Source of the DNA: an uncultured Spirochaetota bacterium
Lineage (GTDB): Bacteria > Spirochaetota > Spirochaetia > SZUA-6 > Fen-1364
Direction of reading: 5' to 3'
DNA: 64,000 nucleotides
Assembly (NCBI GenBank): GCA_963845325.1
Contig: CAWJRT010000013.1
Span: 128,614 to 192,613 of the forward strand
Positions 2,956 to 38,380 of this stretch are shown here, piece after piece (position 1 is the stretch's first letter; each line of letters opens with the position of its first letter). The notes below the pieces were generated by a model. It made no database searches. It was not told the DNA's origin and was given only the letters and a program-made list of their open reading frames with translations. The position numbers and the translations under genes are program-made.

Positions 2956-3024
2956 ATGGTCGCAGGCGCAATCGGAGTTGTTCTTCTCATCATCCTGGTT
3001 GTTGTGCTGCTCCGCATAATCTGA
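2956..3024 (+). CDS. 22-aa hydrophobic peptide (hypothetical small membrane protein)
   Basis: AGGAGG at 2943-2948 is followed 7 nt later by an ATG. Product is MVAGAIGVVLLIILVVVLLRII, then a stop. It is below the ORF-track size cutoff. Confidence 0.3.
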   Translation: MVAGAIGVVLLIILVVVLLRII

Positions 3025-3117
3025 CCCACAGCCTCAGCAAGTCTCTGATCGATTTTTCGGCCCGGCTGCCGGGGACTGCCCCTTGGGCGGAGTCCTGCGC
3101 TGAAAGGACAGGAAAAA

Positions 3118-9052: not shown

Positions 9053-10228
9053 TTGTCAAGGCAGGCCGACCGACGGTATACTTCCCGCATCGGAAAAGCC
9101 GCCCGGTACGTCATTCTCGCGCTCGCCCGCCGTCTCCTGGAACGCCTGTCCCACGGCATCATCATCCACGCCGGCGGCCGCGCGTTGTTCGCCAGCCAGG
9201 GAATGTACCGCCTGCTGGCTGCGGAACCGGGCTCGCTGGATGGAGTCCGGATTGAAACGCTCGTGCGTCCCGAGGACGCCCCGACCCTGACGGCAGCGTC
9301 AAAGGACCCCGAGCTGCCCCACGAGCTTTCACTTCTTCGGCGGGACGGGACCGGCGTCTGGGTCCAGGCCCAGGGTATCAGGGTCAGGATTGCCGGGGAG
9401 AGAGTCGAGCTTCTCAGCGTGACCGACGTCAGCGCGCGGCGGGACGCTGAAGAGGCCCGCCGCAGGATGGCGGACCTGGTCAGGCGCCAGGAGGAACAGC
9501 TGGAGCATTCCACGCGGCTCGCCGAGGTTGGAGAAATGGCTGCCTCGATCTCTCACGAGCTGAACCAGCCCCTGACGGGAATCCGCAACTACGCGCGCAA
9601 CGCCTACTATATGCTGGAGCAGAAGCCCGACGCAGAGGCGGAGGTGAAAAACAACCTGCGCCTCATTTCGGAACAGGTGGACCGCGCCGCCAAGATCATC
9701 AACCAGATGCGCGAGCTCACCAAGCGGTCGGATTCCGTCTTCAGCCTCCTGGAGTTGAACAGCGTGATCCGCGAAAGCGTGGATTTCATCCTGCCGCAGA
9801 TGAAGCTCTCCGAGGTCGCGGTGAGCCTCCGGCTGGAGGAAAGCCTCCCCCTGATCTGGGGAGACCGGATCCGGTTGGAGCAGGTGTTTCTCAACCTTCT
9901 GTCGAACGCGCGCCAGGCCATGACGGACGTCCCGGTCCGGAAGCTCGTGATCGAAAGCAGGCGCGATCCCGCCGCCGTGCTGCCCGTCGTCGTCGAGGTG
10001 ACCGACACCGGAAAGGGCTTCTCCGAGGAACAGGCGCTCCGGCTTTTCCAGCCCTTCTACACGACACGCAAGGGCGGACACGGCCTCGGGCTCTCGATTT
10101 CCCGAGCAATCGTCGTTGACCACAAGGGATCCATCGACGCAACCGGCTCTCCCGGGGCCGGGGCGACATTCACCATGCGGCTGCCCGCGGCCCGGTCCGA
10201 GACCGCCCCGGCACGGAGCGGCACATGA
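9053..10228 (+). CDS. cytoplasmic PAS-domain sensor histidine kinase (start uncertain)
   Basis: Frame of ORF 8936..10228. A PAS-like region is followed by the H-box EMAASISHELNQPLTG, the N-box LEQVFLNLLSNARQA, and the G-boxes DTGKGF and GHGLGLSIS. TTG at 9053 is the first start that does not overlap the divergent MFS gene. Confidence 0.75.
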   Translation: MSRQADRRYTSRIGKAARYVILALARRLLERLSHGIIIHAGGRALFASQGMYRLLAAEPGSLDGVRIETLVRPEDAPTLTAASKDPELPHELSLLRRDGTGVWVQAQGIRVRIAGERVELLSVTDVSARRDAEEARRRMADLVRRQEEQLEHSTRLAEVGEMAASISHELNQPLTGIRNYARNAYYMLEQKPDAEAEVKNNLRLISEQVDRAAKIINQMRELTKRSDSVFSLLELNSVIRESVDFILPQMKLSEVAVSLRLEESLPLIWGDRIRLEQVFLNLLSNARQAMTDVPVRKLVIESRRDPAAVLPVVVEVTDTGKGFSEEQALRLFQPFYTTRKGGHGLGLSISRAIVVDHKGSIDATGSPGAGATFTMRLPAARSETAPARSGT

Positions 10229-23562: not shown

Positions 23563-24197
23563 ATGACCGAGGTTCAGCAAAACGACCGCCTGCGCGTGCG
23601 GCGGCGAGGCAACCGAGCAGCAGCTCATGGAGCGGCTCGACGAGGTTCTCACGGAGTACCAGGGAAAGCCGGGTGCGCTGATCCCCGTGCTGCAGATCGC
23701 CCAGGGCATCTTCGGCTACCTGCCCGGAGCGTGATGAAGCGCGTGGCGCTTCGGCTCGGCAAGTCCTACAGCGAGGTGGCGGGCGTCGTGGGCTTCTACT
23801 CCTTCTTCTCCACCGTTCCGCGGGGAAAGCACCTGGTGCGGGTGTGCCTGGGCACCGCCTGCTACGTGCGCGGCGGCAAGCAGGTCCTGGAGGCCTGCCG
23901 GCAGGAGCTGGGCATCGACGTGGGGGGCACAACCGCGGACGGCCTGTTCACCCTCGAAGTGGCCCGGTGCTTCGGCGCCTGCGGCCTGGCCCCCACGATC
24001 ATGATCGACGAGGACGTGCACCAGCGGGTGAAGCCGCCGAAGCTGCGCGCGCTGTTCTGCCGCGTACCGCGACGGGCCGGCGCCGAGGAACCGTCGGCAC
24101 GCGAAGAAGCAGACGGCGGCGAAGAAGCCGCCCAGGAAGACGGCGCCGGCCGTCCCGCAAAGGCACGGTGCGCAGGGAAAGGGTGGTGGCGAAATGA
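23563..24197 (+). CDS. hydC: NuoE-like [2Fe-2S] subunit of NAD(P)-linked [FeFe]-hydrogenase, at least 2 apparent frameshifts
   Basis: GALIPVLQIAQGIFGYLP, VCLGTACYVRGGKQVLEA and ARCFGACGLAPTIMIDE (the four Cys of the NuoE cluster). A basic C-terminal tail ends with an ATGA overlap at 24194-24197 in a shifted frame. AGGAAGGGAG lies upstream of the ATG. Confidence 0.75.
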
Positions 24198-24577
24198 GCG
24201 AAAAGATCAGCAGTCCCCAGGACCTCCTGAAGCTGCGCGACGCGGCCCGAAGCCAGGTCGACCTGCGCGGGGGACGTGAAGGAAGCGCAGGTCGTGGTGC
24301 ACATGGGCACGTGCGGAATTGCCGCGGGCGCGCGCGACATCGTCGCGGAGCTCGTGGCCGAGCTGGACAGCCGGGGCGTGCAGACGGTGACCGTGCGGCA
24401 GTCCGGTTGCATCGGTCTGTGCGACCAGGAGCCCATGCTCACCTACACCGACAAGACCGGGCGCAACTTCCTCTACGTGAACCTGACGCGGGAGAAGGTG
24501 CGGCGAGATGGTGGAGCGCCACATCGTCGAAGGGCTAGCCCGTGGAGCAGTACATCATGAAAGGAGAGGCGACATGA
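24194..24577 (+). CDS. thioredoxin-like [2Fe-2S] ferredoxin domain protein, 2 apparent frameshifts
   Basis: MSEKISSPQDLLKLRDAARSQVDLRG + QVVVHMGTCGIAAGARDIV...VRQSGCIGLCDQEPML + MVERHIVEG...[16 protein letters not shown] overlap with the next gene. Confidence 0.7.
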
Positions 24578-27500
24578 GCCGATCGAGATGCAATGTCCTG
24601 ATCTGCACCGGCGGCGGCTGCGTGGCCTCCGGCGCCCTTGAGCTGAGCGCGGCCATGCGGGCCGCCATCAGAAGCACGGCCTGGAGGGCGAGGTGCAGGT
24701 GTTCGAGACCGGCTGCCTCGGCCCCTGCGCGGCGGGCCCGGTGGCCGTCGTCCATCCCGACGGGATCCTCTACCAGAATCTCAAGCCCGCCGACGCGGAG
24801 CGCATCGCCGAGGAGCACCTGCTGAAGGGCAGGATCGTCGAAGGAGCTCGCGTACGAGACAGCGTGCCGGAGAGCATGGAGGCGCTGGGCCTGCAGGAGA
24901 TCCCGTTCTTCCGCAAGCAGGTGAAGATCGTCCTGCGCAACTGCGGGCTCATCGATCCGCTGAAGATCGAGGAGTACATCGCCCGGGACGGCTACATGGC
25001 CCTGGCGAAGGTGCTCACCGAGATGACGCCCGAACAGGTGATCGATGAGGTGAAGAAGTCCGGCCTGCGCGGCAGGGGCGGCGCGGGATTCTCCACGGGC
25101 ATGAAGTGGGAGCTCTGCCGCAAGGCGCCGGGCACGGAGAAGTTCACGCTCTGCAACGCGGACGAGGGAGACCCGGGCGCGTTCATGGACAGGAGCGTGC
25201 TGGAAGGTGATCCGCACAGCCTCATCGAGGCCATGACCATCGCCGGCTACGCCATCGGCTCCTCGCAGGGATACGTCTACGTGCGCGCCGAGTACCCCCT
25301 GGCCGTGGAACGGCTCACCCGGCCATCGAGCACGCGCGCGAGCGCGGCCTGCTTGGCAAGAACATCATGGGCACCAGCCCACAGCTTCGACCTGGAGATC
25401 CGGATGGGGTCAGGCGCATTCGTCTGCGGAGAAGAGACGGCGCTCATGACCTCAATCGAGGGCAACCGGGGCGAGCCGCGGCCCCGGCCGCCCTTCCCCG
25501 CGTTCAAGGGGCTCTGGGGAAAGCCGAGCCTCCTGAACAACGTGGAGACCTATGCCGCGATCCCGGCGATCATCCTGAAAGGTTCCGGCTGGTACGCCTC
25601 CATGGGAACCGCGAAGAGCAAGGGCACGAAGGTGTTCGCCCTGGCCGGCGCCGTGAAGAACACGGGCCTCGTGGAGATCCCCATCGGCATGCCGCTGGGC
25701 GAGCTGGTCTTCGACATCGGCGGCGGAATGAGGGAAGGCAAGACCTTCAAGGCCGCGCAGATCGGCGGGACCATCGGGCGGCTGCATCCCGCGGCACCAC
25801 CTGAACGTGCCCGTGGACTACGAATCCCTCGCCGAGCTGGGCGCCATCATGGGCTCGGGCGGCCTCATCGTCATGGACGAGGACACCTGCATGGTGGACA
25901 TGTCCCGGTTCTTCCTCGAGTTCGTGCAGGACGAATCCTGCGGCAAGTGCACGCCCTGCCGGGTGGGCACGAAGCGGATGCTGGAAATCCTGGACCGCAT
26001 CTGCGAGGGCAGGGGGCAGGAGGGAGACATCGAGCGCCTGATCGACTCGGGCAACACGATCAAGGACACGGCCCTCTGCGGGCTCGGCCAGACAGCGCCC
26101 AACCCCGTCCTCTCTGCAATCCGCCATTTCCGCGAAGAGTTCGTCGAGCACATCAGGGACCACAAATGCCGCGCTGGGCGTGTGCCCCGAGCTGGTGCGC
26201 GCCCCGTGCCAGAACGCGTGCCCGGCGGGCGTGGACGTGCCGGGCTTCGTGAGCCTGATCGGGGAGAAGCGCTACGACGAGGCGCTGACCCTGCACCGGG
26301 AGAGGAACCCGCTCGCGGCAATCTGCTCCCGCGTGTGCTTCCATCCCTGCGAGAGCAAGTGCCGGCGTTCAACGCTGGACGATCCGCTTTCCATCAGGTC
26401 GCTGAAGCGCTTCATGGTGGAGCAGGAGAAAGAGTTCAACCTTCCGGCGATGACCCTGGACGGCGCCAACGCAAAGAGGAAGGTGGCCGTCGTGGGCGCG
26501 GGCCCCGCGGGACTTTCCTGCGCGTACTTCCTGGCGCGGCTGGGCTACCGGCCGACGGTTTTCGAGGCTGCCTCGGAGCCCGGCGGGATGCTCGTGCAGG
26601 CCATACCCGGCCTACCGGCTGCCGCGCGACATTCTGCGCCGCGAGATCGGCATGATCGAAAAGCTCGGCGTGAAGATCAAGACGAACAAGACGCTCGGCA
26701 GGGACTTCACCCTTTCGAGCATGAAGGAGATGGGCTTCGAGGCGGTGTTCGTCGCCGTTGGCGCGCCGAAGGGCGCCGGCCTGGGAATGAAAGGGGACGA
26801 GGCGGCGGGCGTGACGGAGGCCATCGACTTCCTGCGGCAGTACAACCTCACGGGCAAGGTGCCCGTGGGAAAGAACGTGGTCGTCGTGGGCGGCGGCAAT
26901 GCGGCAATCGACGCGGCGCGCACGGCAATTCGGCTGGGCGCTTCCTCCGTCACGGTGGCGTACCGTCGGACCCGCGCGGAGATGCCCGGCCTACATGGAA
27001 GAGGTGGAGGAGGCCGAGCGCGAGGGAGTGAAATTCCAGTTCCTCGTTTCGCCGATGGACCTCATGCACGAGAAGGGGAAGCTGGCGACGGTGAAAATGC
27101 GCCGCATGGGGCTGGGCGATTTCGACCGGACGGGCCGGCGCAAACCCGTGGCTGACCCGCAGAGCGACTTCGACATGCCGGGCAGACCAGCTCATCGCCG
27201 CGGTGGGCCAGGCGCTCGATGCCGAACGGATCTTCAACGGCGTATCGCTGAAGCTCAACGACCGTGAGTTCATTGCGGTGAACCCGGTGAACGGGCAGGC
27301 CTCCGAGGAATGGGTGTTTGCAGGAGGCGATGCGGTAAGCGGCCCCTCGTCTGTCATCGAAGCAATTGCCGCCGGAGAAAAGGCGGCGGCGGGGATGCAC
27401 GCTTTCCTCGCCGGCGCGGGCGACATCCCGTGGCGGTCCTCGAAGGTCGTGGACACTTTCTTCGATCCGGATGCCGACCCCGCGATGGGCGGGCGTCCCG

Positions 27501-27640
27501 GGCTGAAGATGATCCCCGTATCGCGGCGCAGGGGTTTCGCAGAGGTGGAGACCACCTGGTCATCCGCCGTTGCCCTGGCCGAGACGAAGCGCTGCCTTCG
27601 CTGCGACTACCGCGAGCCGGCCGCGCCGGCCGTCCACTAG
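24574..27640 (+). CDS. hydB: NuoF-like flavoprotein fused to a GltD/NfnB-like NAD(P)H:FAD oxidoreductase module, about 8 apparent frameshifts
   Basis: N-terminal 2Fe-2S thioredoxin-like domain ([10 protein letters not shown]...[10 protein letters not shown]). NuoF core ([49 protein letters not shown]). [10 protein letters not shown] then continues across one indel (about 26170), with no stop, into [24 protein letters not shown]. After that come [28 protein letters not shown] and [10 protein letters not shown] (the GltD/NfnB pattern). AAAGGAGAGG lies upstream of ATG 24574. Confidence 0.75.
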
Positions 27641-27653
27641 AGAGGAGAAAGAA

Positions 27654-29423
27654 ATGCCATCCCTGACCATAGACAACAAGACGATCAGCGTGACGGACGG
27701 AACGAGCCTGCTCGAGGCCGCCCGGCAGGCCGGCGTCCAGGTTCCCAGCCTCTGTTACCTGAAAAAGGTGCAGGCCATCGGCTCCTGCCGCGTATGCCTG
27801 GTGGAGGTGGAGGGCGCAAAGACCCTCACGGCCTCCTGCGTCACCCCTTGCTTCGAGGGCATGAAAGTGCACACCAACTCGGCGCGGGTCCGCACGGCCC
27901 GCAAGGCGGTCGTCGAGCTGATCCTCTCGGACCACGAGGGGGACTGCCAGACCTGCGACAGGAACGGCGATTGCGAGCTGCAGTCCGTTGCGCGCGACCT
28001 GGGCATCCGGGAGATCACCTACGCCGGCGGCAAGAGCGTCCGGCGCAAGGACACCAGCACCCCGGCCCTCGTGCGCGACACGGCCAAGTGCATCCTCTGC
28101 CGGAGATGCGTCACCGTCTGCGGCCAGACACAGGGCGTGGCCGCCATTTTCCCGCAGAAGCGCGGGTTCCAGTCCGTCATCGGGCCGGCCTTCGCTTCCG
28201 ACCTTGCGGACGTCGTGTGCGTGCAGTGCGGGCAGTGCGCCGCGGTGTGCCCCGTGGGAGCCATCGGAGAGAAGGACGAGGTCGCGAAGGTCTGGGCCGC
28301 CATCGACGACCCGACGAAGACCGTGCTTGTGCAGACCGCCCCGGCAATCCGTGCCGCGCTTGGGGAATGCTTCGGGTTCCCGCCGGGGACCCTGGTCACC
28401 GGGCAAGATGGTCACTGCCCTGCGGCTTATGGGGTTCGACAGGATCTTCGACACGAACTTCACCGCGGACCTCACCATCATGGAGGAAGGCACGGAGCTC
28501 TTGACCCGGCTGAAGAAGGCGCTCGTGGATGGTCAGCAGGTGCCTCTCCCCTTGTTCACCAGCTGCTCGCCGGGCTGGATCCGCTACGCGGAGCATTTCT
28601 ACCCTGAAATCCTCCCCAACATCTCCACGTGCAAGTCGCCTCAGCAGATGTTCGGCGCCATTGCCAAGACCTACTACGCGGAGAAGATCGGAAAGAAGCC
28701 GGAAGACATCTTCGTCGTTTCGGTGATGCCCTGCACGGCGAAAAAGTACGAATCCCAGCGTCCCGAAATGTATTCCAGCGGCGTGCGCGACGTCGATGTC
28801 GTCCTTACCACCCGGGAGCTCGGCCGCATGATCCGCGAGGCCGGCATCAACTTCCCGGGCTTCCGGACGGCCAGATGGACAGCATCCTCGGTGCCTCCTC
28901 GGGTGCCGCGGACATCTTTGCCAACACCGGCGGCGTCATGGAGGCGGCCCTGCGGACGGTGTACGAGATCGTTACCGGCCGCCAGCTGCCTTTCGACAAC
29001 CTGCACGTTGCTCCAGTGGCGGGGCTCGCGGGGGTCAAGGAAGCGGCGATCAAGATCGAGGGCACGGTGCGGGAATGGGCGTTCCTCGAAGGGGTCACCG
29101 TGAAGGTGGCCGTTGCCCATGGGCTGGGCAACGCGCGGCTCCTCATCGAGAGGATCAAGGCCGGTGAGCAATACCATTTCGTGGAAGTCATGACCTGCCC
29201 CGGAGGCTGCATCGGCGGCGGCGGCCAGCCGCGCGTCACGACGGACGAAGTGCGCCTTGCGCGCATCGCGGCCATCTACAAGGAGGACGAGGGCAAGTCC
29301 ATCCGCAAGTCCCACAACAACCCCGAGGTGGCGGCCATCTACGAGGAGTACCTCAAGAAGCCGCTCGGGGAGAAGTCGCACCACCTCCTGCACACGAAAT
29401 ACACAGCGCGGGAGAGGGTGTAG
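27654..29423 (+). CDS. hydA: [FeFe]-hydrogenase catalytic subunit (M3-type HydA), 2 apparent frameshifts
   Basis: 2Fe-2S domain, HEGDCQTCDRNGDC, CILCRRCVTVC and CVQCGQCAAVCP. H-cluster motifs FTSCSPGW (L1 variant), MPCTAKKYE (L2) and EVMTCPGGCIGGGGQP (L3). Pieces lie in ORFs 27570..28607, 27988..29103 and 28629..29423. AGAGGAGAAAGAA lies upstream of the ATG. Confidence 0.85.
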
Positions 29424-29450
29424 GACGGGAGACGGGACGCGGGGGCCGCA

Positions 29451-31601
29451 ATGGGCATAGTCTCGACGATTCCCGAGAAATGCAGGCGCTGCTACGCGTG
29501 CGTGCGCGAATGCCCGGTAAAGGCCATCAAGGTCATCGCCGGGCAGGCCACGGTCATCGAGGAGCAGTGCGTGGCGTGCGGGAACTGCGTCAAGGTCTGC
29601 ACGCAGAAGGCCAAGCGTATCGAGGATGCCACGATGCTGGTGGGCCGGCTGCTGGAGGGGGAACAGCACCGCCGGTGCCCAATCCGCCGGGTACGTCGGT
29701 GCGGAATCCGCCGGGTACGTCGGTGCCCAATCCGCCGGGTACGTCGGTGCGGTGTTTGCGATCCTTGCGCCGTCGTTCCCGGTCGCTTTTCCCGATGTGC
29801 CTCCTGGAAAGATCGTCGGTGCGCTGCGCAGCCTGGGGTTTGCCCAGGTGTGGGAGGTGGCCTTCGGCGCGGAGCTGGTGAGCCGCGAGTACGCCCGGCT
29901 TGCGCGCGAGGCCATCAGGGGCGGCCAGACCGTCGTGAGCACGCCCTGCCCGGCCATTGTCTCGTATGTGCAGAAATACCTGCCCCGGCTCCGGGGGTCG
30001 CTTGCCCGCGTGGTCTCTCCGATGATCGCCACGGCACGGGCGATCAAGGACAGGCACGGCGCGGGGGTGAGGATCGTCTTCATCGGCCCATGCATTGCAA
30101 AGAAGGCGGAGATCAAGGACCCGTTCGTGCAGGGGACCGTGGACGCGGTGCTCACCTACGAGGAGCTCCTCACGATGTTCGCGGCAGCCGGGATATCGCC
30201 ACAGGCGGAAGATGCCTGCGAGTTCGACGGGCCGTCGGCGTACCTGGGCCGGTCCATCCCGATTCCGGGCGGCCTCTTGAGGGCCGCGGGAATCGATTCG
30301 GACATACTCCAGAACAACGTGCTCGTTACCGAGGGCAAGGACAGGGTGCTGCCGGTGTTTCGCGAGCTCGCGGATGGGAAGAGCAAGGCACGAGTCCTGG
30401 ACGTGCTGTTCTGCGAAGGCTGCATCAACGGCCCGAAGATGACCAACGCCCTGAGCGTGTTCGCGCGCAAGGAGATGCTCACTGACCACATCAACGAGCT
30501 GAACGTGGCCATGGGCGGGCAGAACATCCAGGAAGCGCTCGGCGAGTTTGACCGGGTCGATCTCGCCGGGGATTCAGCGAGGATGCGGTGTTCCTTCCGC
30601 AGCCCACCGAAGGAGAGATTGCAGTGGCGCTTCGGAGGATGAGGAAGTTCGGCCCCGAGGATCAGCTGAACTGCGGATCCTGCGGCTATCCCTCCTGCCG
30701 CGACAAGGCAATTGCCGTGTGCCAGGGCTTTGCGGAGGTGAGCATGTGCCTGCCCTACCTCGTGGAGGAGCTGGAGGGGACTCTCTCCCTGACGCAGGAC
30801 AAGCTCGTTCAGACCGAGAGGCTTGCCTCCATGGGACAGATATCCGCGGGAGTTGCGCACGAGATCAACAATCCCCTGTCTACGATCCTCCTGTACTCGC
30901 ACATGCTGCTGAAGGCCCACCGCCAGGGCGATCCCGAGTCGGAAGACATCCAGATGATCGTTTCCGAGGCCGACAGGTGCCGCACGATCATGCGCGGCCT
31001 CCTGGACTTCGCGCGGCAGTCGCGTGTTGTCAAGACGCCCACGGACCTCGGCCGCCTGGTGCGTGAGCTGGCCGATGCCATGAACGTGAAGCTGGATCCC
31101 GCCGTGGTCCGCGTGCGCTGCGAGATTGCCCCGGGCCTGCCGCCGCTCATGCTGGACTCGGACCAGGTCCGCCAGATGCTGCTGAACTTCGTGCAGAACG
31201 GGATCGACGCCGTGGAGGACCGGGTTGCAGCGGACGCAGGCGGACCTGACGCCATCGGCCCTGAACGGAGCGGCCCCGGGGAGGTCGTGATCAGCGCGCT
31301 TCTCTCAACCTCGGCCGACATGCTGCACCTGCGCGTGAGCGACACCGGATCCGGCATGCCGCCCGAAGTCATCAAGGATATTTTCACGCCCTTCTATACC
31401 ACGAAGCAGCTTGGAAAGGGCACCGGAATGGGGTTGTCCATCGTGTACGGCGTGGTGAAAATGCACGCAGGGGACATTGCCGTGGACAGCGAGGTGGGCC
31501 GGGGGACGTCGTTCCTCGTGCGCATCCCCGTCGAACAGGGAGGTGAGCAATGGCGAGAACCGTTCTGCTGGTTGATGACGACGCGGATTTCGTGGAGATG
31601 A
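29451..31601 (+). CDS. HydS-like sensory [FeFe]-hydrogenase domain fused to a histidine kinase, 2 apparent frameshifts
   Basis: CRRCYACVRECP and CVACGNCVKVC. H-domain-like motifs STPCPAIV, GPCIAKKAE and FCEGCINGP. FeS domain NCGSCGYPSCRDKA. HisKA ISAGVAHEINNPLS. HATPase LLNFVQNGIDA, DTGSGMP, GTGMGLSIV. Frame changes are at the G5 run near 29656-29660 and near 30565. Confidence 0.8.
29679..29750 (+). repeat. tandem repeat, 3 x 24 nt, core AATCCGCCGGGTACGTCGG (inside the HydS-kinase gene)
   Basis: Units at 29679-29702, 29703-29726 and 29727-29750, each NN+AATCCGCCGGGTACGTCGGTGC (NN = CC, GG, CC). The gene reads them as QSAGYVGA, ESAGYVGA, QSAGYVGA. Removing them joins GCCGGTGC|GGTGTTTGCG, giving ...STAGAVFAILAPSF. 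Confidence 0.9.
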
Positions 31602-31978
31602 ACCGGATGCTCCTCGAACAGAACGGGTATTCCGTTCGCGTGGCATATTCCGGGCGCCAATGCCTGGCGGAAGTCGCCGCATGCCGGCCCGACATCATCA
31701 TCCTGGACATGGTCATGGAAAGCCGGGAAGACGGTTTCGAGGTGTCACGGGAGCTGCGCAACTCCGAGCACACGAAGTCCATCCCCCTCGTGATGATCAC
31801 CTCGGTGAACGACAGCATTCCCTTCCACCTGGAGCCGGACCGCACCTGGCTTCCCGTGGACGCCCTGCTGGAGAAACCCGTTGAGCCGCAGCTGCTGCTG
31901 ACGGTCGTGGACACGGCGCTGAAGCCAAAGACGGCGCAGGCGCGTCCGGTGAATGACGCGCAGGCGCGTCCGGGCTGA
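31550..31978 (+). CDS. stand-alone response-regulator receiver (CheY-like)
   Basis: MARTVLLVDDDADFVEMNRMLL...PDIIILDMVMESREDG...PLVMITS...EKP. No output domain. GGAGG lies upstream of the ATG. Confidence 0.85.
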   Translation: MARTVLLVDDDADFVEMNRMLLEQNGYSVRVAYSGRQCLAEVAACRPDIIILDMVMESREDGFEVSRELRNSEHTKSIPLVMITSVNDSIPFHLEPDRTWLPVDALLEKPVEPQLLLTVVDTALKPKTAQARPVNDAQARPG

Positions 31979-31983
31979 GCTCT

Positions 31984-32388
31984 ATGCCTGCCCCCCTCGT
32001 CTACCTTGTCGATGACGACAGGGACTTTCTCGAAATGGAAGCGGCCATTCTTTCCGCCGGGGGCTACCGCACGAAGAGCTTTTCCGACGCGCGCGAGGCC
32101 CTTGCTGCACTCGCGTCGGCCGACGGGGAACAGCGGCCATCCCTCCTGGTGACCGACCTGATGATGAAGTCTCTCGATGCCGGCTTCACCTTCGCCCGTG
32201 CCGTCCGCTCCGATCCACGCCTGTCGGACATCCCGATCGTCATCGTCTCCGCGGTGGCAAGCCAGAAGGGATTCGACTTCCGGCCGCGAACGGCGGATGA
32301 CCTTGCCGCGATGAACGCCGAGGCCTTCTTCGACAAGCCCGTCCCGCCGGCAGCGTTCCTGGCAAAGGTGAAGGAGCTCGCGCCGTGA
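31984..32388 (+). CDS. stand-alone response-regulator receiver (CheY-like)
   Basis: MPAPLVYLVDDDRDFLEM...SLLVTDLMMKSLDAG...PIVIVSA...FDKP. No output domain. GTGA overlap with the next gene. Confidence 0.85.
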   Translation: MPAPLVYLVDDDRDFLEMEAAILSAGGYRTKSFSDAREALAALASADGEQRPSLLVTDLMMKSLDAGFTFARAVRSDPRLSDIPIVIVSAVASQKGFDFRPRTADDLAAMNAEAFFDKPVPPAAFLAKVKELAP

Positions 32389-33965
32389 TCCAGCCAGCGG
32401 CGCCAAATCCGCCGGGTACGTCGGCGCAGAATCCGCCGGGTACGTCGGCACAGAATCCGCCGGGTACGTCGGCGCCAAATCCGCCGGGTACGTCGGCGCG
32501 CATCCTCGTGGTTGACGACGAGCTGGGCGTGCGTGAAGGCTGCCGCAAGATCCTCGCTGCCGAGGGCTACGATGTGCTCACCGCCGGCGACGGCAAGGCC
32601 GGGCTCGAGCAGCTGATCGAGCGCGGGCCTTTCGCCGTCCTGCTGGTTGACCTGCAGATGCCCCGGATGTCCGGCCTGGAGCTGATCCAGGAGGCCAGGA
32701 GCCGGGACTCCGACATCGTACCCATCATCATCACCGCCCACGCAACGCTGGACACAGCCGTGGAGGGGACACGGCAGGGAGCTTACAGCTACATCCCCAA
32801 GCCGTTCACCCCGGACGAGCTGCTGCTGGCCATCAAGAACGGACTGGAGAAAAGGGCACTGTCCATCGAGGCGCGTCGGCTCCGCGAGGAGCGGGAAAAA
32901 CGCCTTCTGGAGGTCGCCTCCGAGCGCTCGCGGAGCAACACGATCATCTCGGCGATGACGGACGGGATCCTCGTGATCAACATGGAGAAGCTGGTGGTGC
33001 TGCGCAACAACGCGGCAGCCCGCATTCTTCCTGACTGCGCCCACCGGCCCATCCCGTTCCCGCTGGAGGAGATCGAGAGCCCCGACGTTCGCGAGATCGT
33101 GAATATCGTCATCGACTCTCCCGGCGGCTTCATGATCCTCTCCCGCCAGATCCCCCTGGGAGAGTTCACCTACATGGTGAACGTCAGCCCGATCATCGAG
33201 CCCGGCGGGGAAACATCCGGGGCCGTCGCCGTGTTCAGCGACGTCACGGAGCTGAAGAAGCTGGACACGGCGAAATCCATGTTCGTCTCCCTGGTTGCGC
33301 ACGAGGTCAAGAGCCCGCTCGCCGCCACGGAGGGGTGGCTCAATCTCGTGCTCAGCGGAATGCTGAAGACGAACCCGGCGGAAGAGCGTCACATGCTGGA
33401 ACGGGCTCTGCTGCGCGTGAGGACCCTTCGCGGTATGGTGAACGAGCTGATCAGCCTCACGGCGATCCAGACGGGCAATTTTTCCCTGAAAAGGGCGCCC
33501 GTGGTGGTGGCGGAAGTCGTGGAAGAAGTCGTGGCTGCCGGGCAGGGAAAAGGCGGAGGAGCATCGCATTTCAGTGGAAGTCACCGATTGCGCGCCCGGC
33601 ACGCGCGTGCTTGCCGACCGTGACGCCCTGTCCATGATCTGCTCCAACCTGGTGGAGAACGCGGTCAAGTACACGCGGGACGGAGGGCATGTGGTTGTGC
33701 GCATGTGCCGCGAAGGGATGTACGTGACCGTGGCGGTGAAGGATGACGGAATCGGGATGTCCGACGGAGGACGCCGCGCAGGATCTTTGAGGAGTTCTAC
33801 CGGGCCAGAAACGAGCAGACCGCCAGCATCCCCGGCACGGGCCTGGGCCTCAGCCTTGTGAAGCGGCTCACAGAGCTGCACGAAGGAACGGTGAGCGTCT
33901 CCTCCCTGTTCGGGGCGGGCAGCGAGTTTATTGTAAAACTTCCGCTGATCGAGCCGCAGGGCTGA
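32385..33965 (+). CDS. hybrid receiver-PAS-histidine kinase, 2 apparent frameshifts
   Basis: GTG start, then the repeat-encoded PNPPGTSA-type octapeptides. Then RILVVDDELGV...VLLVDLQMPRMSG...PIIITAH...PKPF, a PAS-like segment, H-box SMFVSLVAHEVKSPLAA, LVENAVKYT, DDGIGM and GTGLGLSLVKRL. Ends at TGA 33965. Confidence 0.8.
32404..32499 (+). repeat. tandem repeat, 4 x 24 nt, same core AATCCGCCGGGTACGTCGG (codons 7-38 of the receiver-kinase gene)
   Basis: Units NN+AATCCGCCGGGTACGTCGGCGC (NN = CA, AG, AG, CA; unit 2 ends GGCAC). Read as PNPPGTSA, QNPPGTSA, QNPPGTSA, PNPPGTSA. Removal restores GTG ATC CAG CCA GCG GCG CGC ATC CTC GTG GTT GAC GAC. Confidence 0.9.
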
Positions 33966-33976
33966 TCCGGCCGAAC

Positions 33977-35815
33977 ATGACGAAGCCAGCCGCGGACTCT
34001 CGCGAGATCAGCCGGGCCCTGAAACACCATTTCGGGTTCACCGCGTTCCGCCCGCACCAGAAGGAGATCGTCGAAGCCGTCCTCCAGGGGCGTGATGTCT
34101 TTGCCGCACTTCCAACGGGCGGCGGCAAATCCCTCTGCTACCAGCTTCCTGCCGTCATGCACAGCGGCCTCACACTGGTGGTGAGCCCCCTCATCTCCCT
34201 TATGAAGGACCAGGTGGACGGGGCGCGGGAAGAAGGAATCTCCGCGGCGCTGCTCAACAGCACCCTGTCCGCCGACGAGGCAAAGAGCACGTGGCGCGCA
34301 CTGTCCGCCGGCAGCATTCGTCTCCTCTACGCCTCCCCCGAGCGGTTGTCCATTCCGGCCTTCCGCTCCGCGCTCTCCCGTTTCGGGCTCGGGCTCATCG
34401 CCGTTGACGAGGCGCACTGCATCTCGGAGTGGGGCCACGAGTTCCGCCCCGACTACCGGTCGCTGGGCCTCCTGCGTGCCGAGTTTCCCGATGTGCCTAT
34501 TGCTGCATTCACGGCAACGGCCACACCGCAGGTCCAGGAAGATATCGTACGGCTGCTCGCGCTGAAGACGCCCTATATCGTCCGGGCAAGCTTCGACCGG
34601 CCGGAAATCTTCTACCGGGTGCGCGCGCGGGAAGGCGACGGCGACGCACAGGTTCTTCAGTTCGTCCGGAAGCATGCGGCACAGCCGGGCATCGTGTACC
34701 GGGGCACGCGCAAGGCGGTTGAACGAACCGCGGACTTCCTCGCTGCCCGTGGGATTGAAGCGGTGGCCTACCACGCCGGGCTGGAGGATGCACTCCGCCG
34801 CTCCCGGCAGGACGCGTTCGTCCGGGATGAGGCGGCCGTGGTGGTTGCAACCATTGCCTTCGGAATGGGTATCGACAAGCCGAACGTCCGCTGGGTTGTT
34901 CACGCCGACCTTCCGCGCAGCGTGGAGGGCTACTACCAGGAAACCGGCAGGGCTGCCCGGGACGGCGATCATGCCGAGGCCTTGCTCCTGTACGGGTCAG
35001 GCGATATCGCTTCCATCCGATGGCATATCGAAAGGATGGAGAACCCGGAAGCGGCCCATCGCGCGGAGGCACGGCTTCGGGAAATCCTGCAGTATGCGGA
35101 ATCCTCGGTGTGCCGCCGGACGCAGCTCCTGGGGCACTTCGCCGAACACCATCCCGGCACCTGCGGACGCTGCGACGTGTGCGCCGGCGAGGTGACGCGG
35201 GAAGACCTCACCGAGTCCGCGCGGAAGCTCCTCTCCGCGGTGGTGCGGACGGGGGAACGCTTCGGCGCGCACCACCTCGTGGACATCCTGACAGGCACCT
35301 TGACGGACAAGGTGCAGGAGCGCGGGCACCACGATCTCCCCACGTGGGGCATCGGCAGGGAACATGACCGTGACTGGTGGCTCGCGCTGGCCCGGGACCT
35401 GGATGCGGCCGGAATCCTGGTTCGGGGAGAGGGACGCACCGCGGGGTACAGCCTTTCCGGGAAGGGGCGCCTTCTGCTGAGGGGGAAAGAGACATTCCTG
35501 GGAACGAGGAATACCGGGAGAAACGGCGCCCGGGATCGACCAGGGCAGGGCTCCCTCGACCGGCTCGACCTGCCCGACGGACCTGCGCAGGAGGGGCTCT
35601 TCCAGGCTCTCCGGCAGGTGAGGAAGCGCATTGCCGAAGCCCGGCGGGTGCCACCGTACATCATCTTCAGCGACAAGACCCTCCGGGCAATGGCCCGGAG
35701 CAGGCCGACCGACCCGGCTGGATTTCTCCGATGCCCCGGTGTCGGTGATGCAAAGCTCGAGGCCTACGGGGCGCTCTTCCTGGAAGCAGTCCGGGAGTTT
35801 CTCGCTCGCGGCTAG
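33977..35815 (+). CDS. recQ: ATP-dependent DNA helicase RecQ
   Basis: Intact 612 aa. FRPHQKEIV, LPTGGGKSLCYQLPA, DEAHCISEWGHEFRPDY, the zinc-binding region CRR...CGRCDVC, and a C-terminal HRDC domain (RVPPYIIFSDKTLRAMA). Confidence 0.9.
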   Translation: MTKPAADSREISRALKHHFGFTAFRPHQKEIVEAVLQGRDVFAALPTGGGKSLCYQLPAVMHSGLTLVVSPLISLMKDQVDGAREEGISAALLNSTLSADEAKSTWRALSAGSIRLLYASPERLSIPAFRSALSRFGLGLIAVDEAHCISEWGHEFRPDYRSLGLLRAEFPDVPIAAFTATATPQVQEDIVRLLALKTPYIVRASFDRPEIFYRVRAREGDGDAQVLQFVRKHAAQPGIVYRGTRKAVERTADFLAARGIEAVAYHAGLEDALRRSRQDAFVRDEAAVVVATIAFGMGIDKPNVRWVVHADLPRSVEGYYQETGRAARDGDHAEALLLYGSGDIASIRWHIERMENPEAAHRAEARLREILQYAESSVCRRTQLLGHFAEHHPGTCGRCDVCAGEVTREDLTESARKLLSAVVRTGERFGAHHLVDILTGTLTDKVQERGHHDLPTWGIGREHDRDWWLALARDLDAAGILVRGEGRTAGYSLSGKGRLLLRGKETFLGTRNTGRNGARDRPGQGSLDRLDLPDGPAQEGLFQALRQVRKRIAEARRVPPYIIFSDKTLRAMARSRPTDPAGFLRCPGVGDAKLEAYGALFLEAVREFLARG

Positions 35816-35834
35816 GCCGCACCACGGCGGGCCC

Positions 35835-37237
35835 CTAGTCGGGCAGCGTGTCCCCCGACGCCTGGCGCAGGGCGTATTCGCTCAATACTTCCTTGTACAT
35901 CGCGGCGAGGTTGGAAATATTTGCCGTTTCCAGGGCGGTCTGCGCGTCCAGGTACTCCAGGTTGCTGATGACGCCGATGTCGTACTGGACCTTTGCCACT
36001 TCCACCATCTGGCGCGCCTGGTCCAGCGCTCCCGCGGAGATCTCGACCTGCTGGCGCGCGGCCCTGCACATCCTGCGCCGCCTGGAGGACCTGGGTCGTC
36101 GCGTTCAGCCGTGCGGCAGATGTGTTTTCTCTTGCGCCGTCAAGCTTCTTCTGCGCTTCGTCCTGCAGGCGTGCCTGGAGGAAACCCTGGAAGATGGGAA
36201 CGTTCACCTGCACCCCGGCAACCCAGTTGAAGACGGGCACATTGATGTCAGGCAGCGCGCCATTCTTGTATCCCACGGAGGCGTGGGCCGAAACGGTGGG
36301 CCAGGGCCCGAGCGACGCCAGCCGCTGGCTGAGGTCCGCGGCGCTCTCTGCCTCGACTGCCTGGCGCACATCGGTCCTCTTCTGCAGCGCCGATTCCACC
36401 AGCGACGCGTCGTCGGCGGGCGCGGCGCCGGGATCGAAACTGCCGCTCAGCGCGATCGGGGCGGACGGGGGCAAGACCGGTGAGCTGGCGCAGCGCGATC
36501 TTCTGCTTCTGGAACTGGCTCTCGACATCCGTGCGCTGGCTCTGCAGCGCCGCCATGCGGACCTGGGTGCCCAGGTCTTCCAGCCGGGTCGCGGACCCCG
36601 TGTCCTCCCTCACCTGGATCACGCGCAGGTGCTCCTGGAGGTTCTGGTACTGCTCATCCAGCGCCTTGCCCTGCTCCTGGAGGAAGAGCGCGGTGTAGAA
36701 CACCTGCACCGCCTGGTAGGAGATCGCGGTCGTCACCTGGTCCACGCCGATCCGCGCCGAGGCAAGCCCGCTCTGCGCAAGCTTGACCTGCACGTCCCTC
36801 TTTCCGAACTGGGTGATCACCTGGTTGAGGCCGATATTGAAGTCCCAGTTGTTGTCGGGAACCAGCGAGAATGGGGCGGAGAGGAGCGCCTGGTACTGGG
36901 ACGGGACCTGCGATGACAGGAAGGGCGGCAGCACGGAGGAGATGGCGAAGCTCTCGTCCGAGAGCCGGTTGTACGATGCCGTCCCGCTCACCATGGGGTA
37001 GTACGAGCTTTGCGCCTCCCCCACCCGCGCGCGCGCCGCTTCCACCGCGGCCAGCGCCTGGCGGATCAGGGGCTGGTTTGCCTTTGCGCGTGACACCGCC
37101 TGCTCCACGGTGAGGGTCACCGCGTTCGCATCTGCCGCCGTGTCCCGCGGAGAGGGGACTGAGAGAAACCAGGAGGAGCGCAGCGGCCGATCGGGACCAC
37201 CCGCGCCCTCATCAGCGAGCAGGAAGCTCCCGATCAT
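35835..37237 (-). CDS. TolC-family outer-membrane efflux protein, at least 2 apparent frameshifts
   Basis: ATGA overlap with the adaptor stop at 37234-37237. TolC-like repeats (LTVEQAVSRAKANQPLIRQALAAVEAARARVGEAQSSYYP...; ...LDAQTALETANISNLAAMYKEVLSEYALRQASG). Pieces lie in ORFs 36248..39160, 35812..36528 and 35835..36071. Confidence 0.75.
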
Positions 37238-38380
37238 CGGGCCACCTCCATGCCGTCCAGGAGGGCGCTGACGTTGGACACCGCCACCAGCTCTCCGGCG
37301 GTGAGCCCGGAGATCACCTGCACGTCCTTGTCGTTGCGGGGGCCCAGGGCCACCTGTCTCTTGTGCGCCGTGCCGTCCGCCATGACGAAGATGTCGGCGT
37401 GCCCGTCCTCGTTGCCCGCAACCGCGTTCAGCGGAATGAGGACCCCGTCTCCACCGGTCGTGGTGAAGGACGCCTTGGCCGTCATGCCGGCAAGGAGTCG
37501 GCCGTCGTTCTTCAGGCTCACGACGACCGGGAAGTACTGCCCCGTGGCGGCCGCGATGGGCCCGACCTGCTGGATGCGGCCGGCGTAGCTGCTGGACGGC
37601 AGCGCATCCACGGTCACGCTCACCTTGTCCCCCACGGACAGGCGCACCACGTCGTCCTGGGAGACGTTGCCCTGCAGCTTCAGGGTGGCCAGCTCCGCAA
37701 CGGTGAACAGCGGCGTGTTCGTGGAAGTGATTTCTCCCGGGTTGATGTTGCGGTTCGTCACGATGCCGCTGATGGGGCTGGTGATCGTGCTGTTGGAAAT
37801 CTGCACCTTGATGAAGTTCACCTGGGCCTCGCGCCTGCGCGAGCCCCGAGCCGGTAATGGTCTGGTACTGGCGGTTGGCGTTGTCGAATGCGGTTTTTGC
37901 CAGGTCCAGCTTCGTCTGCGCGTCATCAAGCTGGCTCTGCGTGACGACCTTCGTGTCCAGGAGGGTCTTCGTCCGGTCGTAGGACCGCTGGGCCATCTCG
38001 AGGTTCAGCCGGGCGGTCTCCATCCCGTTTTTCACCTGCACTGCCTGGTCCCCGACCCCCTGGGCCGCCGCCTCGGCCACCGCGAGCTGTGCGTTCAGCT
38101 CCTTCGTGTCGATCTGGACCAGCAGCTGTCCCGCCGAAACGCGGTCGCCGACGTCCACGGTGACCGTGGTGGCCTGTCCCGCCAGCTTGGCAAATATGTT
38201 CACCGTGTGGTTGGGCACCAGCACGCCTGAGAACTCGACGTTCCTGACGATCCGGCCCTCGCGCGCCTGCGCGGTGTTCACGCTGAAACGCTGCGCGGCT
38301 TTTGGCGCGCAGCCCAGGAGCCCGATGACGAGGGCCGCTGCCGCGGCTATGGCTCCCCACTGTGCTGTTCGAGCTTTCAA
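37234..38380 (-). CDS. efflux periplasmic adaptor lipoprotein (RND/HlyD_D23-type MFP), 1 apparent frameshift
   Basis: TTG at 38380, 8 nt after AAGGAG, opens MKARTAQWGAIAAAAALVIGLLGC (lipobox). Coiled-coil hairpin, then ITSPISGIVTNRNINPGE...LIPLNAV in ORF 37234..37929. Confidence 0.75.

Follow-up and report, generated by a model that had tools for sequence, protein, structure and literature searches.

A probable small dispersed repeat of wetland Spirochaetia and its two arrays in a hydrogenase operon

A 64,000-nt stretch of DNA from an uncultured Spirochaetota bacterium (assembly GCA_963845325.1, contig CAWJRT010000013.1), analysed as a whole and referred to below as the window, carries two tandem arrays of the same 24-nt unit. 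Array 1 lies in a gene for a sensory [FeFe]-hydrogenase-like histidine kinase (HydS-kinase) and array 2 in a gene for a response-regulator/histidine-kinase hybrid (RR-kinase). We consider it probable (about 0.8) that both arrays are copies of a lineage-specific small dispersed repeat of one uncultured peat/wetland clade of Spirochaetia. The repeat would then belong to the whole lineage, as a selfish or neutral DNA element, and not to the HydS-kinase gene in particular, and what appeared to be a gene-specific oddity would be one copy of a lineage-wide family.

Two arrays of one unit in the window

The arrays and their host genes have the following positions, strand and supporting evidence.

29451..31601, + strand: host gene 1, sensory [FeFe]-hydrogenase-like histidine kinase (Fer4 x2, Fe_hyd_lg_C, FeS PF04060, HisKA, HATPase_c)
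29656..29660, + strand: G5 homopolymer, a probable assembly indel separating the ferredoxin (Fd)-domain frame from the array/H-domain frame (tblastn frame switch, sequence, inference)
29673..29750, + strand: array 1, a CGGTGC partial unit (29673-29678) and three 24-nt units (29679-29702, 29703-29726, 29727-29750) with cores at 29681-29699, 29705-29723 and 29729-29747 (Tandem Repeats Finder, exact matches, same site filled in L053, L054, L048, L010 and L176)
32385..33962, + strand: host gene 2, response-regulator/histidine-kinase hybrid (Response_reg, PAS, HisKA, HATPase_c)
32398..32499, + strand: array 2, a CGGCGC partial unit (32398-32403) and four 24-nt units (32404-32427, 32428-32451, 32452-32475, 32476-32499) (Tandem Repeats Finder, exact matches, orthologue comparison)

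Tandem Repeats Finder delimited array 1 at 29673-29750 (period 24, 3.2 copies, 92% matches), and array 2 comprised 4.2 copies of the 24-nt unit at 32398-32499. The 19-mer AATCCGCCGGGTACGTCGG occurred exactly at 29681, 29705 and 29729 in array 1 and at 32406, 32430, 32454 and 32478 in array 2. A preliminary description of this DNA had reported three 24-nt units with an invariant 19-nt core at 29679-29750, and both the repeat finder and the exact matches agreed with it. Since seven exact matches were observed against 0.01 expected, and seven were reached in 0 of 100 shuffles, chance is excluded within the window. The rest of the 64 kb contained no further match even when three mismatches were allowed, and a search of the window with the unit profile found no weaker copies, the next best match having E = 0.3. 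This sub-threshold match, at window 9094-9113, may be a decayed relic or chance.

Array 1 is situated after the 2x[4Fe-4S] domain (Fer4, residues 6-54 of the open reading frame (ORF) from 29451) and before Fe_hyd_lg_C, which begins at VFAILAPSF (29752); the two Pfam domains thus flank the array as the preliminary description had placed it. In the H-domain frame it reads AQSAGYVGA ESAGYVGA QSAGYVGA, that is, the three octapeptides named earlier. Array 2 reads PNPPGTSA QNPPGTSA QNPPGTSA PNPPGTSA in its own gene's frame, so that the core does recur downstream in a different frame, as had been noted. It forms an N-terminal extension of the RR-kinase that runs straight into the receiver domain (RILVVDDE).

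Claims based on reading frame within window 23600-37240 are subject to an indel-rich assembly. Comparison with clean orthologous proteins by tblastn revealed at least 13 frame switches across these ~14 kb, the genes concerned otherwise sharing 80-95% (roughly 90%) identity with their orthologues; the switches are therefore most probably assembly indels. This pattern fits an indel-rich assembly, not a pseudogene graveyard. In host gene 1 as assembled, the ATG at 29451 sets the frame of the Fd domain, array 1 and the H-domain follow the frame of 29626, and the kinase half returns to the first frame, with breaks at 29653-29670 and 30565-30573 (29653-29660 and 30567-30573 by tblastn of clean orthologues). 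With one G fewer in the G5 run at 29656-29660, the reading becomes LLEGNSTAGA-QSAGYVGA-ESAGYVGA-QSAGYVGA-VFAILAPSF, and in short-read orthologues the frame of array 1 is SAGYVG, continuous and unbroken. The earlier statement that the units are inserted in frame therefore holds for their length, 72 nt being a multiple of three, and for the H-domain frame, but the Fd domain is in another frame as assembled. Reading array 1 as NPPGTSV by way of two hidden deletions was rejected, as clean orthologues read SAGYVG.

The GTG start of host gene 2 overlaps the TGA of the upstream receiver gene (GTGA, 32385-32388). Its ORF as assembled ends at 33623; tblastn homology to the orthologue extends to 33962 without a change of frame, and part of a HATPase_c domain was called in a different frame at 33574-33861. 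The break at 33574-33962 is probably another local indel pair or in-frame error.

Such an assembly could itself have produced the arrays, through repeat collapse or expansion or through chimeric joining in noisy long-read data. The frame switches described above fit this explanation, as do several arrays in public metagenome-assembled genomes (MAGs) that lie at contig ends or beside N runs. However, the same two sites are filled in independent short-read assemblies (k141 contigs L053, L054 and L176), in JGI contigs and in NCBI MAGs of different projects, which makes an artefact highly improbable. The copy number of array 1 as assembled (three) also falls within the range of 0-4 or more found at the same site in independent short-read assemblies.

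A dispersed family with empty and filled sites

Exact matches to the 19-mer were sought in one genome per species. Of the 50 loci obtained, 41 were in 11 MAGs of Spirochaetota/Spirochaetia, with up to 10 loci per genome, and these MAGs originated from peat, fen and soil and from independent projects and platforms (SPRUCE, Stordalen 'fen', MFD, co-assembly and others). The nine loci from other phyla all lacked the conserved 3' CGC and are at chance level. Metagenomes contributed at least 120 stretches with the core, many of them wetland contigs. Viral contigs contained zero core matches, on which ground a phage origin was rejected, and a literature search for the 19-mer found it in none of the papers searched. 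When the loci were pooled, 171 arrays collapsed into ~99 independent sites clustered by their flanks; this count and all family-wide counts below (sites, frames, contexts, copy number) refer to the pooled matches listed, the metagenome part of which is the at least 120 stretches. In public contigs L002/L041, L029, L038 and L078, arrays lie at contig ends or beside N runs, which suggests that the repeat breaks short-read assemblies.

The conserved unit is (A/G)AATCCGCCGGGTACGTCGGCGC followed by two variable bases (~24 nt in all), and the information content drops to background directly after its CGC. At independent sites, the first unit is generally preceded by a weaker partial unit, ...CGnCGCnR. 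The units abut, with 2-5 variable bases between the conserved parts, and are oriented head-to-tail throughout all multi-copy arrays. Among the matches listed, 103 arrays had one copy, 27 had two, 26 had three, 14 had four and one had five, and the copy number varied among members at 15 of the 30 multi-member sites. The inter-unit bases are array-specific (TGCCC/TGCGG, CGCAG/CGCCA, CGACA, CGCGG and others), and in L053 two units share the same two substitutions, representing duplication of a doubly mutated unit. These two features indicate that arrays grow and shrink locally in whole units.

The linker that holds array 1 (site A) was compared in 120 orthologues of the frame-repaired host protein 1. 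Site A was empty in most of them. Orthologues with ≤74% identity have, bar a few independent events, a 20-residue linker (...RMLEGGEK|VFACIAPSF), and several closer relatives likewise have an empty linker. Other close relatives carry one, two, three, four or more units exactly at the bar, as illustrated by the following alleles.

L052, site A: empty (ggg gaa aaa | act ttc)
L054, site A: one unit
L053, site A: 3 x 24 nt
L176, site A: native GGT GAA AAA, 3 x 24 nt, native GTA TTC
L051, site A: two core copies, reverse-complemented and read ADVPGGLGA/ADVPGGFGA

The empty linkers of orthologues, together with 0-4 or more units in close relatives, establish an insertion at the site of array 1. The preliminary description had predicted an uninterrupted protein from the joined flanks and proposed an orthologue alignment as a check; linkers of the form GGEK|VFACIAPSF, present in orthologues at 60-78% identity and in several closer ones, correspond to that protein, and an octapeptide repeat of ancient origin, sought in the more distant orthologues (≤74% identity), was absent apart from the same few events. 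The GGTGC pentamer, which had been likened to a target duplication, does precede the array (29674-29678). It is nevertheless part of the partial unit, which arrived with the element, and is missing from empty alleles, and target-site duplication was rejected for this reason. In a tree built with the linker masked, filled alleles fell into at least three clades, interleaved with empty alleles of exactly the ancestral length, implying repeated gain, precise loss or recombination between lineages.

Of the relatives, L053 is the closest; at the site of array 2 it carries two units, likewise read in the NPPGTS frame, and the site is empty in L052, L048, L084, L176 and L178, even where site A is filled. 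The two arrays of the window are therefore separate events in different frames, which supports the central argument of the preliminary description, namely that the repeat is a DNA-level element. Array 2 is the younger insertion and, among the loci compared, is present only in the lineage of the window and L053. The public gene call of the RR-kinase orthologue in L053 starts at 3109, at an ATG that arose inside the array, and the frame is open from a GTGA-coupled GTG at 3022; arrays of this family can thus mislead start-codon prediction. Consequences for MAG annotation include starts called inside arrays, contigs broken at arrays and low-complexity inserts in conserved enzymes.

Besides site A, the HydS-kinase family has at least three more insertion sites.

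Between HisKA and HATPase, antisense: P0044 and P0019
HATPase loop, sense: six proteins
C-terminus: P0030

One of these proteins, P0019, contains seven units over three sites. The sense copies of the family (sites A, C and D) all read SAGYVG.

Repeated insertion was also seen in other genes. A single Lhr-type helicase gene (L035 4010-7547) has the element at four places and in both orientations, reading APTYPAD between its two RecA-like domains and SAGYVG twice in its C-terminal half; the orthologue in another species (L039) has two units where L035 has one. In a flhG/minD-like gene (L026, L045, L077, L128, L157 and L164), arrays of 1-4 copies, varying between contigs, lie ~20 nt upstream of the start codon and ~50 nt inside the coding region.

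Reading frames, host genes and possible function

Contexts were assigned by flank-wise codon-usage frame calls and checked against Pfam. Twenty-one sites were confidently internal to coding sequences (CDSs): seven read SAGYVG, seven NPPGTS, five ADVPGGF (antisense) and two APTYPAD (antisense). The arginine-rich frames IRRVRRR and RRRTRRI were used at none of the 21 sites (P = 2e-4 under equal frame use); the four frames used give peptides rich in Gly, Pro, Ser and Ala (SAGYVGA, NPPGTSA, ADVPGGF, APTYPAD). According to Pfam, the CDS hosts include NAD synthetase (NadE), FlgK, UvrD-type and Lhr-type helicases, an FGGY kinase, a molybdopterin oxidoreductase, an NtrC-type regulator, a nitroreductase and a second hydrogenase-like sensor, and the element occupies inter-domain linkers, loops or termini of these proteins. 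Single-unit sites are those in NadE, FlgK, the FGGY kinase and the molybdopterin oxidoreductase, among others. Of the sites outside CDSs, some are intergenic or lie on the edges of genes, and some fall in AT-richer DNA that is clearly non-coding. The period was 24 nt in 12 of 12 intervals inside CDSs and in 61 of 82 elsewhere, the rest being 22-31 nt (Fisher P = 0.06). Host and neighbour genes (145 in all) matched 167 Pfam families, none of which occurred in more than three genes.

These contexts bear on a protein-level reading of the repeat, in which selection on signalling proteins would have favoured xSAGYVGx, an octapeptide module, as a short linear motif or a flexible linker. The uniform SAGYVG reading of the sense copies in the HydS-kinase family would agree with this, and the peptides are linker-like and lie between domains. 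However, this DNA encodes NPPGTSA in array 2 and at six further sites, its opposite strand is read as ADVPGGF or APTYPAD, and the core also occurs in non-coding DNA with 25-26-nt periods. Furthermore, the repeat is absent from most orthologues, its variants within arrays are non-synonymous (e.g., G to E and Y to D), and its codon choice is identical everywhere. Copies in several frames, on two strands and in non-coding DNA refute a protein-level repeat, which is scarcely credible on this evidence, and the earlier choice of a DNA-level element over a protein repeat is upheld by the four frames, both strands and non-coding copies.

For the dispersed DNA element that we favour, insertion would occur regardless of coding, and purifying selection would then filter frame, period and position. 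The element would persist in those genes where its length (24 nt), its frame (four tolerable peptides) and its position (linkers, loops, termini) are harmless, and the family would thereby illustrate reading-frame filtering of DNA-level insertions by selection. Replication slippage or unequal exchange could change the copy number locally. New sites might be seeded by copy-choice/template switching from existing arrays or by a trans-acting enzyme, although this step is a guess held with low confidence. The two arrays of the window may be neutral or nearly neutral passengers, array 1 lengthening the Fd/H-domain linker by perhaps ~27 residues and array 2 adding some ~32 residues to a presumably disordered N-terminal extension of the RR-kinase. 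The effect on the hydrogen-sensor kinase is probably just a longer flexible linker.

Several observations weigh against this interpretation. The loci were picked by an exact 19-mer, which overstates the conservation of the core (orthologues not chosen in this way have 1-2 mismatches per core), and the context counts rest on a crude codon-usage gene caller. The sense strand was favoured by 48 to 23 over all classifiable contexts (P = 0.004); within CDSs, the ratio of 14 to 7 was not significant, nor was orientation relative to local GC skew, taken as replication strand (P = 0.11). Many copies lie near gene starts and, together with the sense-strand excess, leave room for an RNA-level or regulatory effect. 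Random insertion does not readily explain why three clades have exactly the same linker position filled, with orientation and frame also shared, and the pattern at site A may reflect old presence with precise losses, or recombination between lineages. The sense-strand excess, the clustering in single genes and the repeated filling of one linker leave a small chance of a function or of a dedicated mobilising system.

A function could be that of a cis-element, i.e., a site for a DNA- or RNA-binding protein or a small-RNA target that tunes host genes, with tandem copies providing graded strength. The strand excess would be expected from such a role, which would also account for the many copies just upstream of or inside gene starts (including array 2 at its GTGA-coupled start), the well-conserved core across species and the clustering of sites within single genes or operons. 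In contrast, close orthologues carry the element patchily and in unstable copy number, the same linker is filled in both orientations in different species, and one Lhr-type gene contains both orientations. The hosts are functionally unrelated, as the spread of Pfam families indicates, and neither a structure signal nor an Rfam match was obtained. A cis-element is therefore quite unlikely.

As to a dedicated mobilising system, the family could be an actively mobile, non-palindromic ~24-nt element, moved by a trans-acting system conserved in the clade, entering the same linker in either orientation and repeatedly remodelling the linkers, loops and termini of sensors and enzymes. We regard this as rather unlikely. 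If true, no kind of mobile DNA would be smaller, and the element would take a direct part in the evolution of protein length. A truly mobile family would also add a second phylum to a poorly understood class of very small dispersed repeats and offer unusually clean natural material on the spread of tiny units: one linker with empty, filled and inverted forms, and a gene family that was entered at four sites.

No target consensus motif was found at the insertion sites and no terminal inverted repeats in the element. Transposases were absent from the Pfam families matched by at least two of the 145 host and neighbour genes; a single distant REP-associated tyrosine transposase (RAYT) outside those genes is possible. 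Microhomology-guided seeding, which on visual inspection seemed convincing for sites A, B, C and 2, failed when every other position of the same genes served as control (P ~0.99 at site A for three of four alleles, 0.05-0.97 elsewhere) and is rejected at the sensitivity of this test. A longer master element was likewise rejected, because the only large cluster of flanks proved to be orthologous neighbouring sites linked in a chain. An origin from tRNA 3' ends, considered on account of an 'AATCC...' resembling a T-arm, was discarded, as the window has no tRNAs and the three tRNAs in the fetched loci lack the core.

Relation to described repeats and the surrounding operon

The closest described class is the small dispersed repeats (SDRs) of cyanobacteria. 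As summarised in papers citing them, SDRs are ~20-27 nt long, dispersed and tandem with variable copy number; they are apparently mobile, their presence differing between related genomes, and encode no transposase (PMC2884548, PMC4390886, PMC3116915). The Spirochaetia element resembles them in its 24-nt unit (22-31 nt outside genes), in its ~99 sites with variable tandem copies among the matches listed, and in presence or absence at orthologous sites, the HydS linker having empty, one-, two-, three- and four-unit and reverse-oriented alleles. Unlike SDRs, so far as those summaries describe them, it belongs to the phylum Spirochaetota, is unrelated in sequence and has a large fraction of its documented copies in frame inside housekeeping genes. 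It also differs from SDR5, which by the same accounts inserts precisely inside HIP1, in that no target was found. Descriptions of SDRs also mention nesting in other repeats.

Insertion into coding regions is familiar from the Rickettsia palindromic elements (RPEs), which are ~100-150 bp long, palindromic and present as single copies in frame in unrelated genes. They are tolerated in permissive regions where the reading frame used stays open. The Spirochaetia element likewise occurs in frame inside ORFs of unrelated function, but it has a 24-nt unit, no significant palindrome and head-to-tail arrays. The position of array 2 at an overlapping stop/start junction inside an operon recalls the mycobacterial interspersed repetitive units (MIRUs), which are 40-100 bp long and intergenic and lie at such junctions. 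MITEs (miniature inverted-repeat transposable elements) have terminal inverted repeats, a target-site duplication and a length of 50-500 bp; here, terminal inverted repeats are lacking and the flanking repeat is a partial unit. DNA uptake sequences, Chi and the FtsK-orienting polar sequences (KOPS) are words that recur about once per kb or few kb with a replication-tied strand bias, in contrast to just two arrays in 64 kb without a link to GC skew. In CRISPR arrays, the repeats are separated by unique spacers of comparable length, whereas the present units abut apart from 2-5 variable bases. Whole-unit copy-number polymorphism between close relatives, with a unit length divisible by three that keeps the frame, is shared with intragenic minisatellites or variable-number tandem repeats (VNTRs). 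Ordinary VNTRs, however, arise by local duplication of local sequence, whereas here the same 19-22 nt occur at ~99 unrelated loci and in both orientations. Palindromic amphipathic repeat coding elements (PARCELs) are also tandem coding repeats with apparent DNA-level spread between genes and genomes, a likeness to the present element, but they encode a 25-residue amphipathic domain (~75 nt) with dyad symmetry and define whole repeat proteins (PMC2996958). The Spirochaetia unit is an 8-residue insertion into otherwise ordinary enzymes.

Repetitive extragenic palindromic (REP) sequences, with BIMEs and REPINs, are short, GC-rich and interspersed, sometimes clustered and sometimes intragenic but mostly extragenic. 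Their definition rests on a stem-loop that is stable, a GTAG or CGTC tag at the terminus and inverted (head-to-head or tail-to-tail) doublets (PMC3116915, PMC3733652). Those of the CGTC type have a terminal unpaired CGTC, an 8-9 bp stem starting with A-T pairs, a 4-5 nt loop, a CCA tail and head-to-head dimers; they have no dedicated transposase, and their head-to-tail arrangement is negligible (PMC3733652). The present family might accordingly be a REP/REP-doublet (REPIN) or CGTC-REP palindromic element mobilised by a RAYT/IS200-like tyrosine transposase. Like these, the unit is short and sometimes intragenic, and its sequence includes CGTC and an inverted repeat of 5-6 bp (CGCCG...CGGCG); intragenic REPs and CGTC REPs without dedicated transposases are documented (PMC3733652). 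Its folding, however, resembles that of shuffled sequence. The unit folds at -5.9 kcal/mol (z = -0.28), and the arrays on both strands gave z from +0.2 to -1.4 against dinucleotide shuffles, no better than shuffled (z -0.3 to -1.4 for unit and arrays as weighed against a REP). An Rfam scan of 29-33 kb returned just a chance snoRNA match, and an RNA family was rejected. The CGTC is internal, the stem is at most 5-6 bp and all G-C with a 7-nt loop, and both misfit the published pattern. The GTAG tag is lacking, inverted doublets are absent, all multi-copy arrangements being head-to-tail, and the families shared by host and neighbour genes include no transposase. The 21 confidently CDS-internal sites, with many more at gene edges, are a further difference. 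A REP-type element is thus very unlikely. The preliminary description had proposed a 19-mer search to see whether the core is a common intergenic REP-type element without preference for these genes. The core has no special link to the two genes, with its ~99 sites in many unrelated genes, but it is not of the intergenic REP type, and the HydS-kinase family was struck at no fewer than four positions.

Other insertions were found in the Fd/H-domain linker. In L055 738-785 (orthologue P0045), another 24-nt tandem pair, GAATGCGCCGCTTCGCGTCGCNGG, read ECAASRRR twice, occupies this linker position. It is similar to the element in its 5' half and in a CGTCG block, and could be either a diverged variant, shifted internally by 1 nt, or a local duplication unrelated to the element. 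Unrelated low-complexity insertions in the same linker (after KAKRIED...) occur in P0091, P0047, P0004 and P0002, e.g., AAMQKALQAPSARRAPTPSAH. This linker position is generally permissive for length change.

Among the frame switches detected by tblastn, those outside the two host genes were distributed as follows.

Near 23662-23725, 2Fe-2S protein: one switch
24574-27616, NuoF-like: six switches
28360-28406 and 28857-28863, HydA: two switches
35838-37237, OEP: two switches

Both arrays lie in a conserved operon (24570-36000) encoding 2Fe-2S proteins, a NuoF/GltD-like subunit, the [FeFe]-hydrogenase HydA, the sensory hydrogenase-like kinase, two single-domain receivers and the receiver-kinase hybrid. 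The operon is followed downstream by RecQ and then by an OEP/resistance-nodulation-division (RND) efflux set on the opposite strand. The gene order across 24570-36000 is the same in relatives at 78-91% identity (L052, L053).

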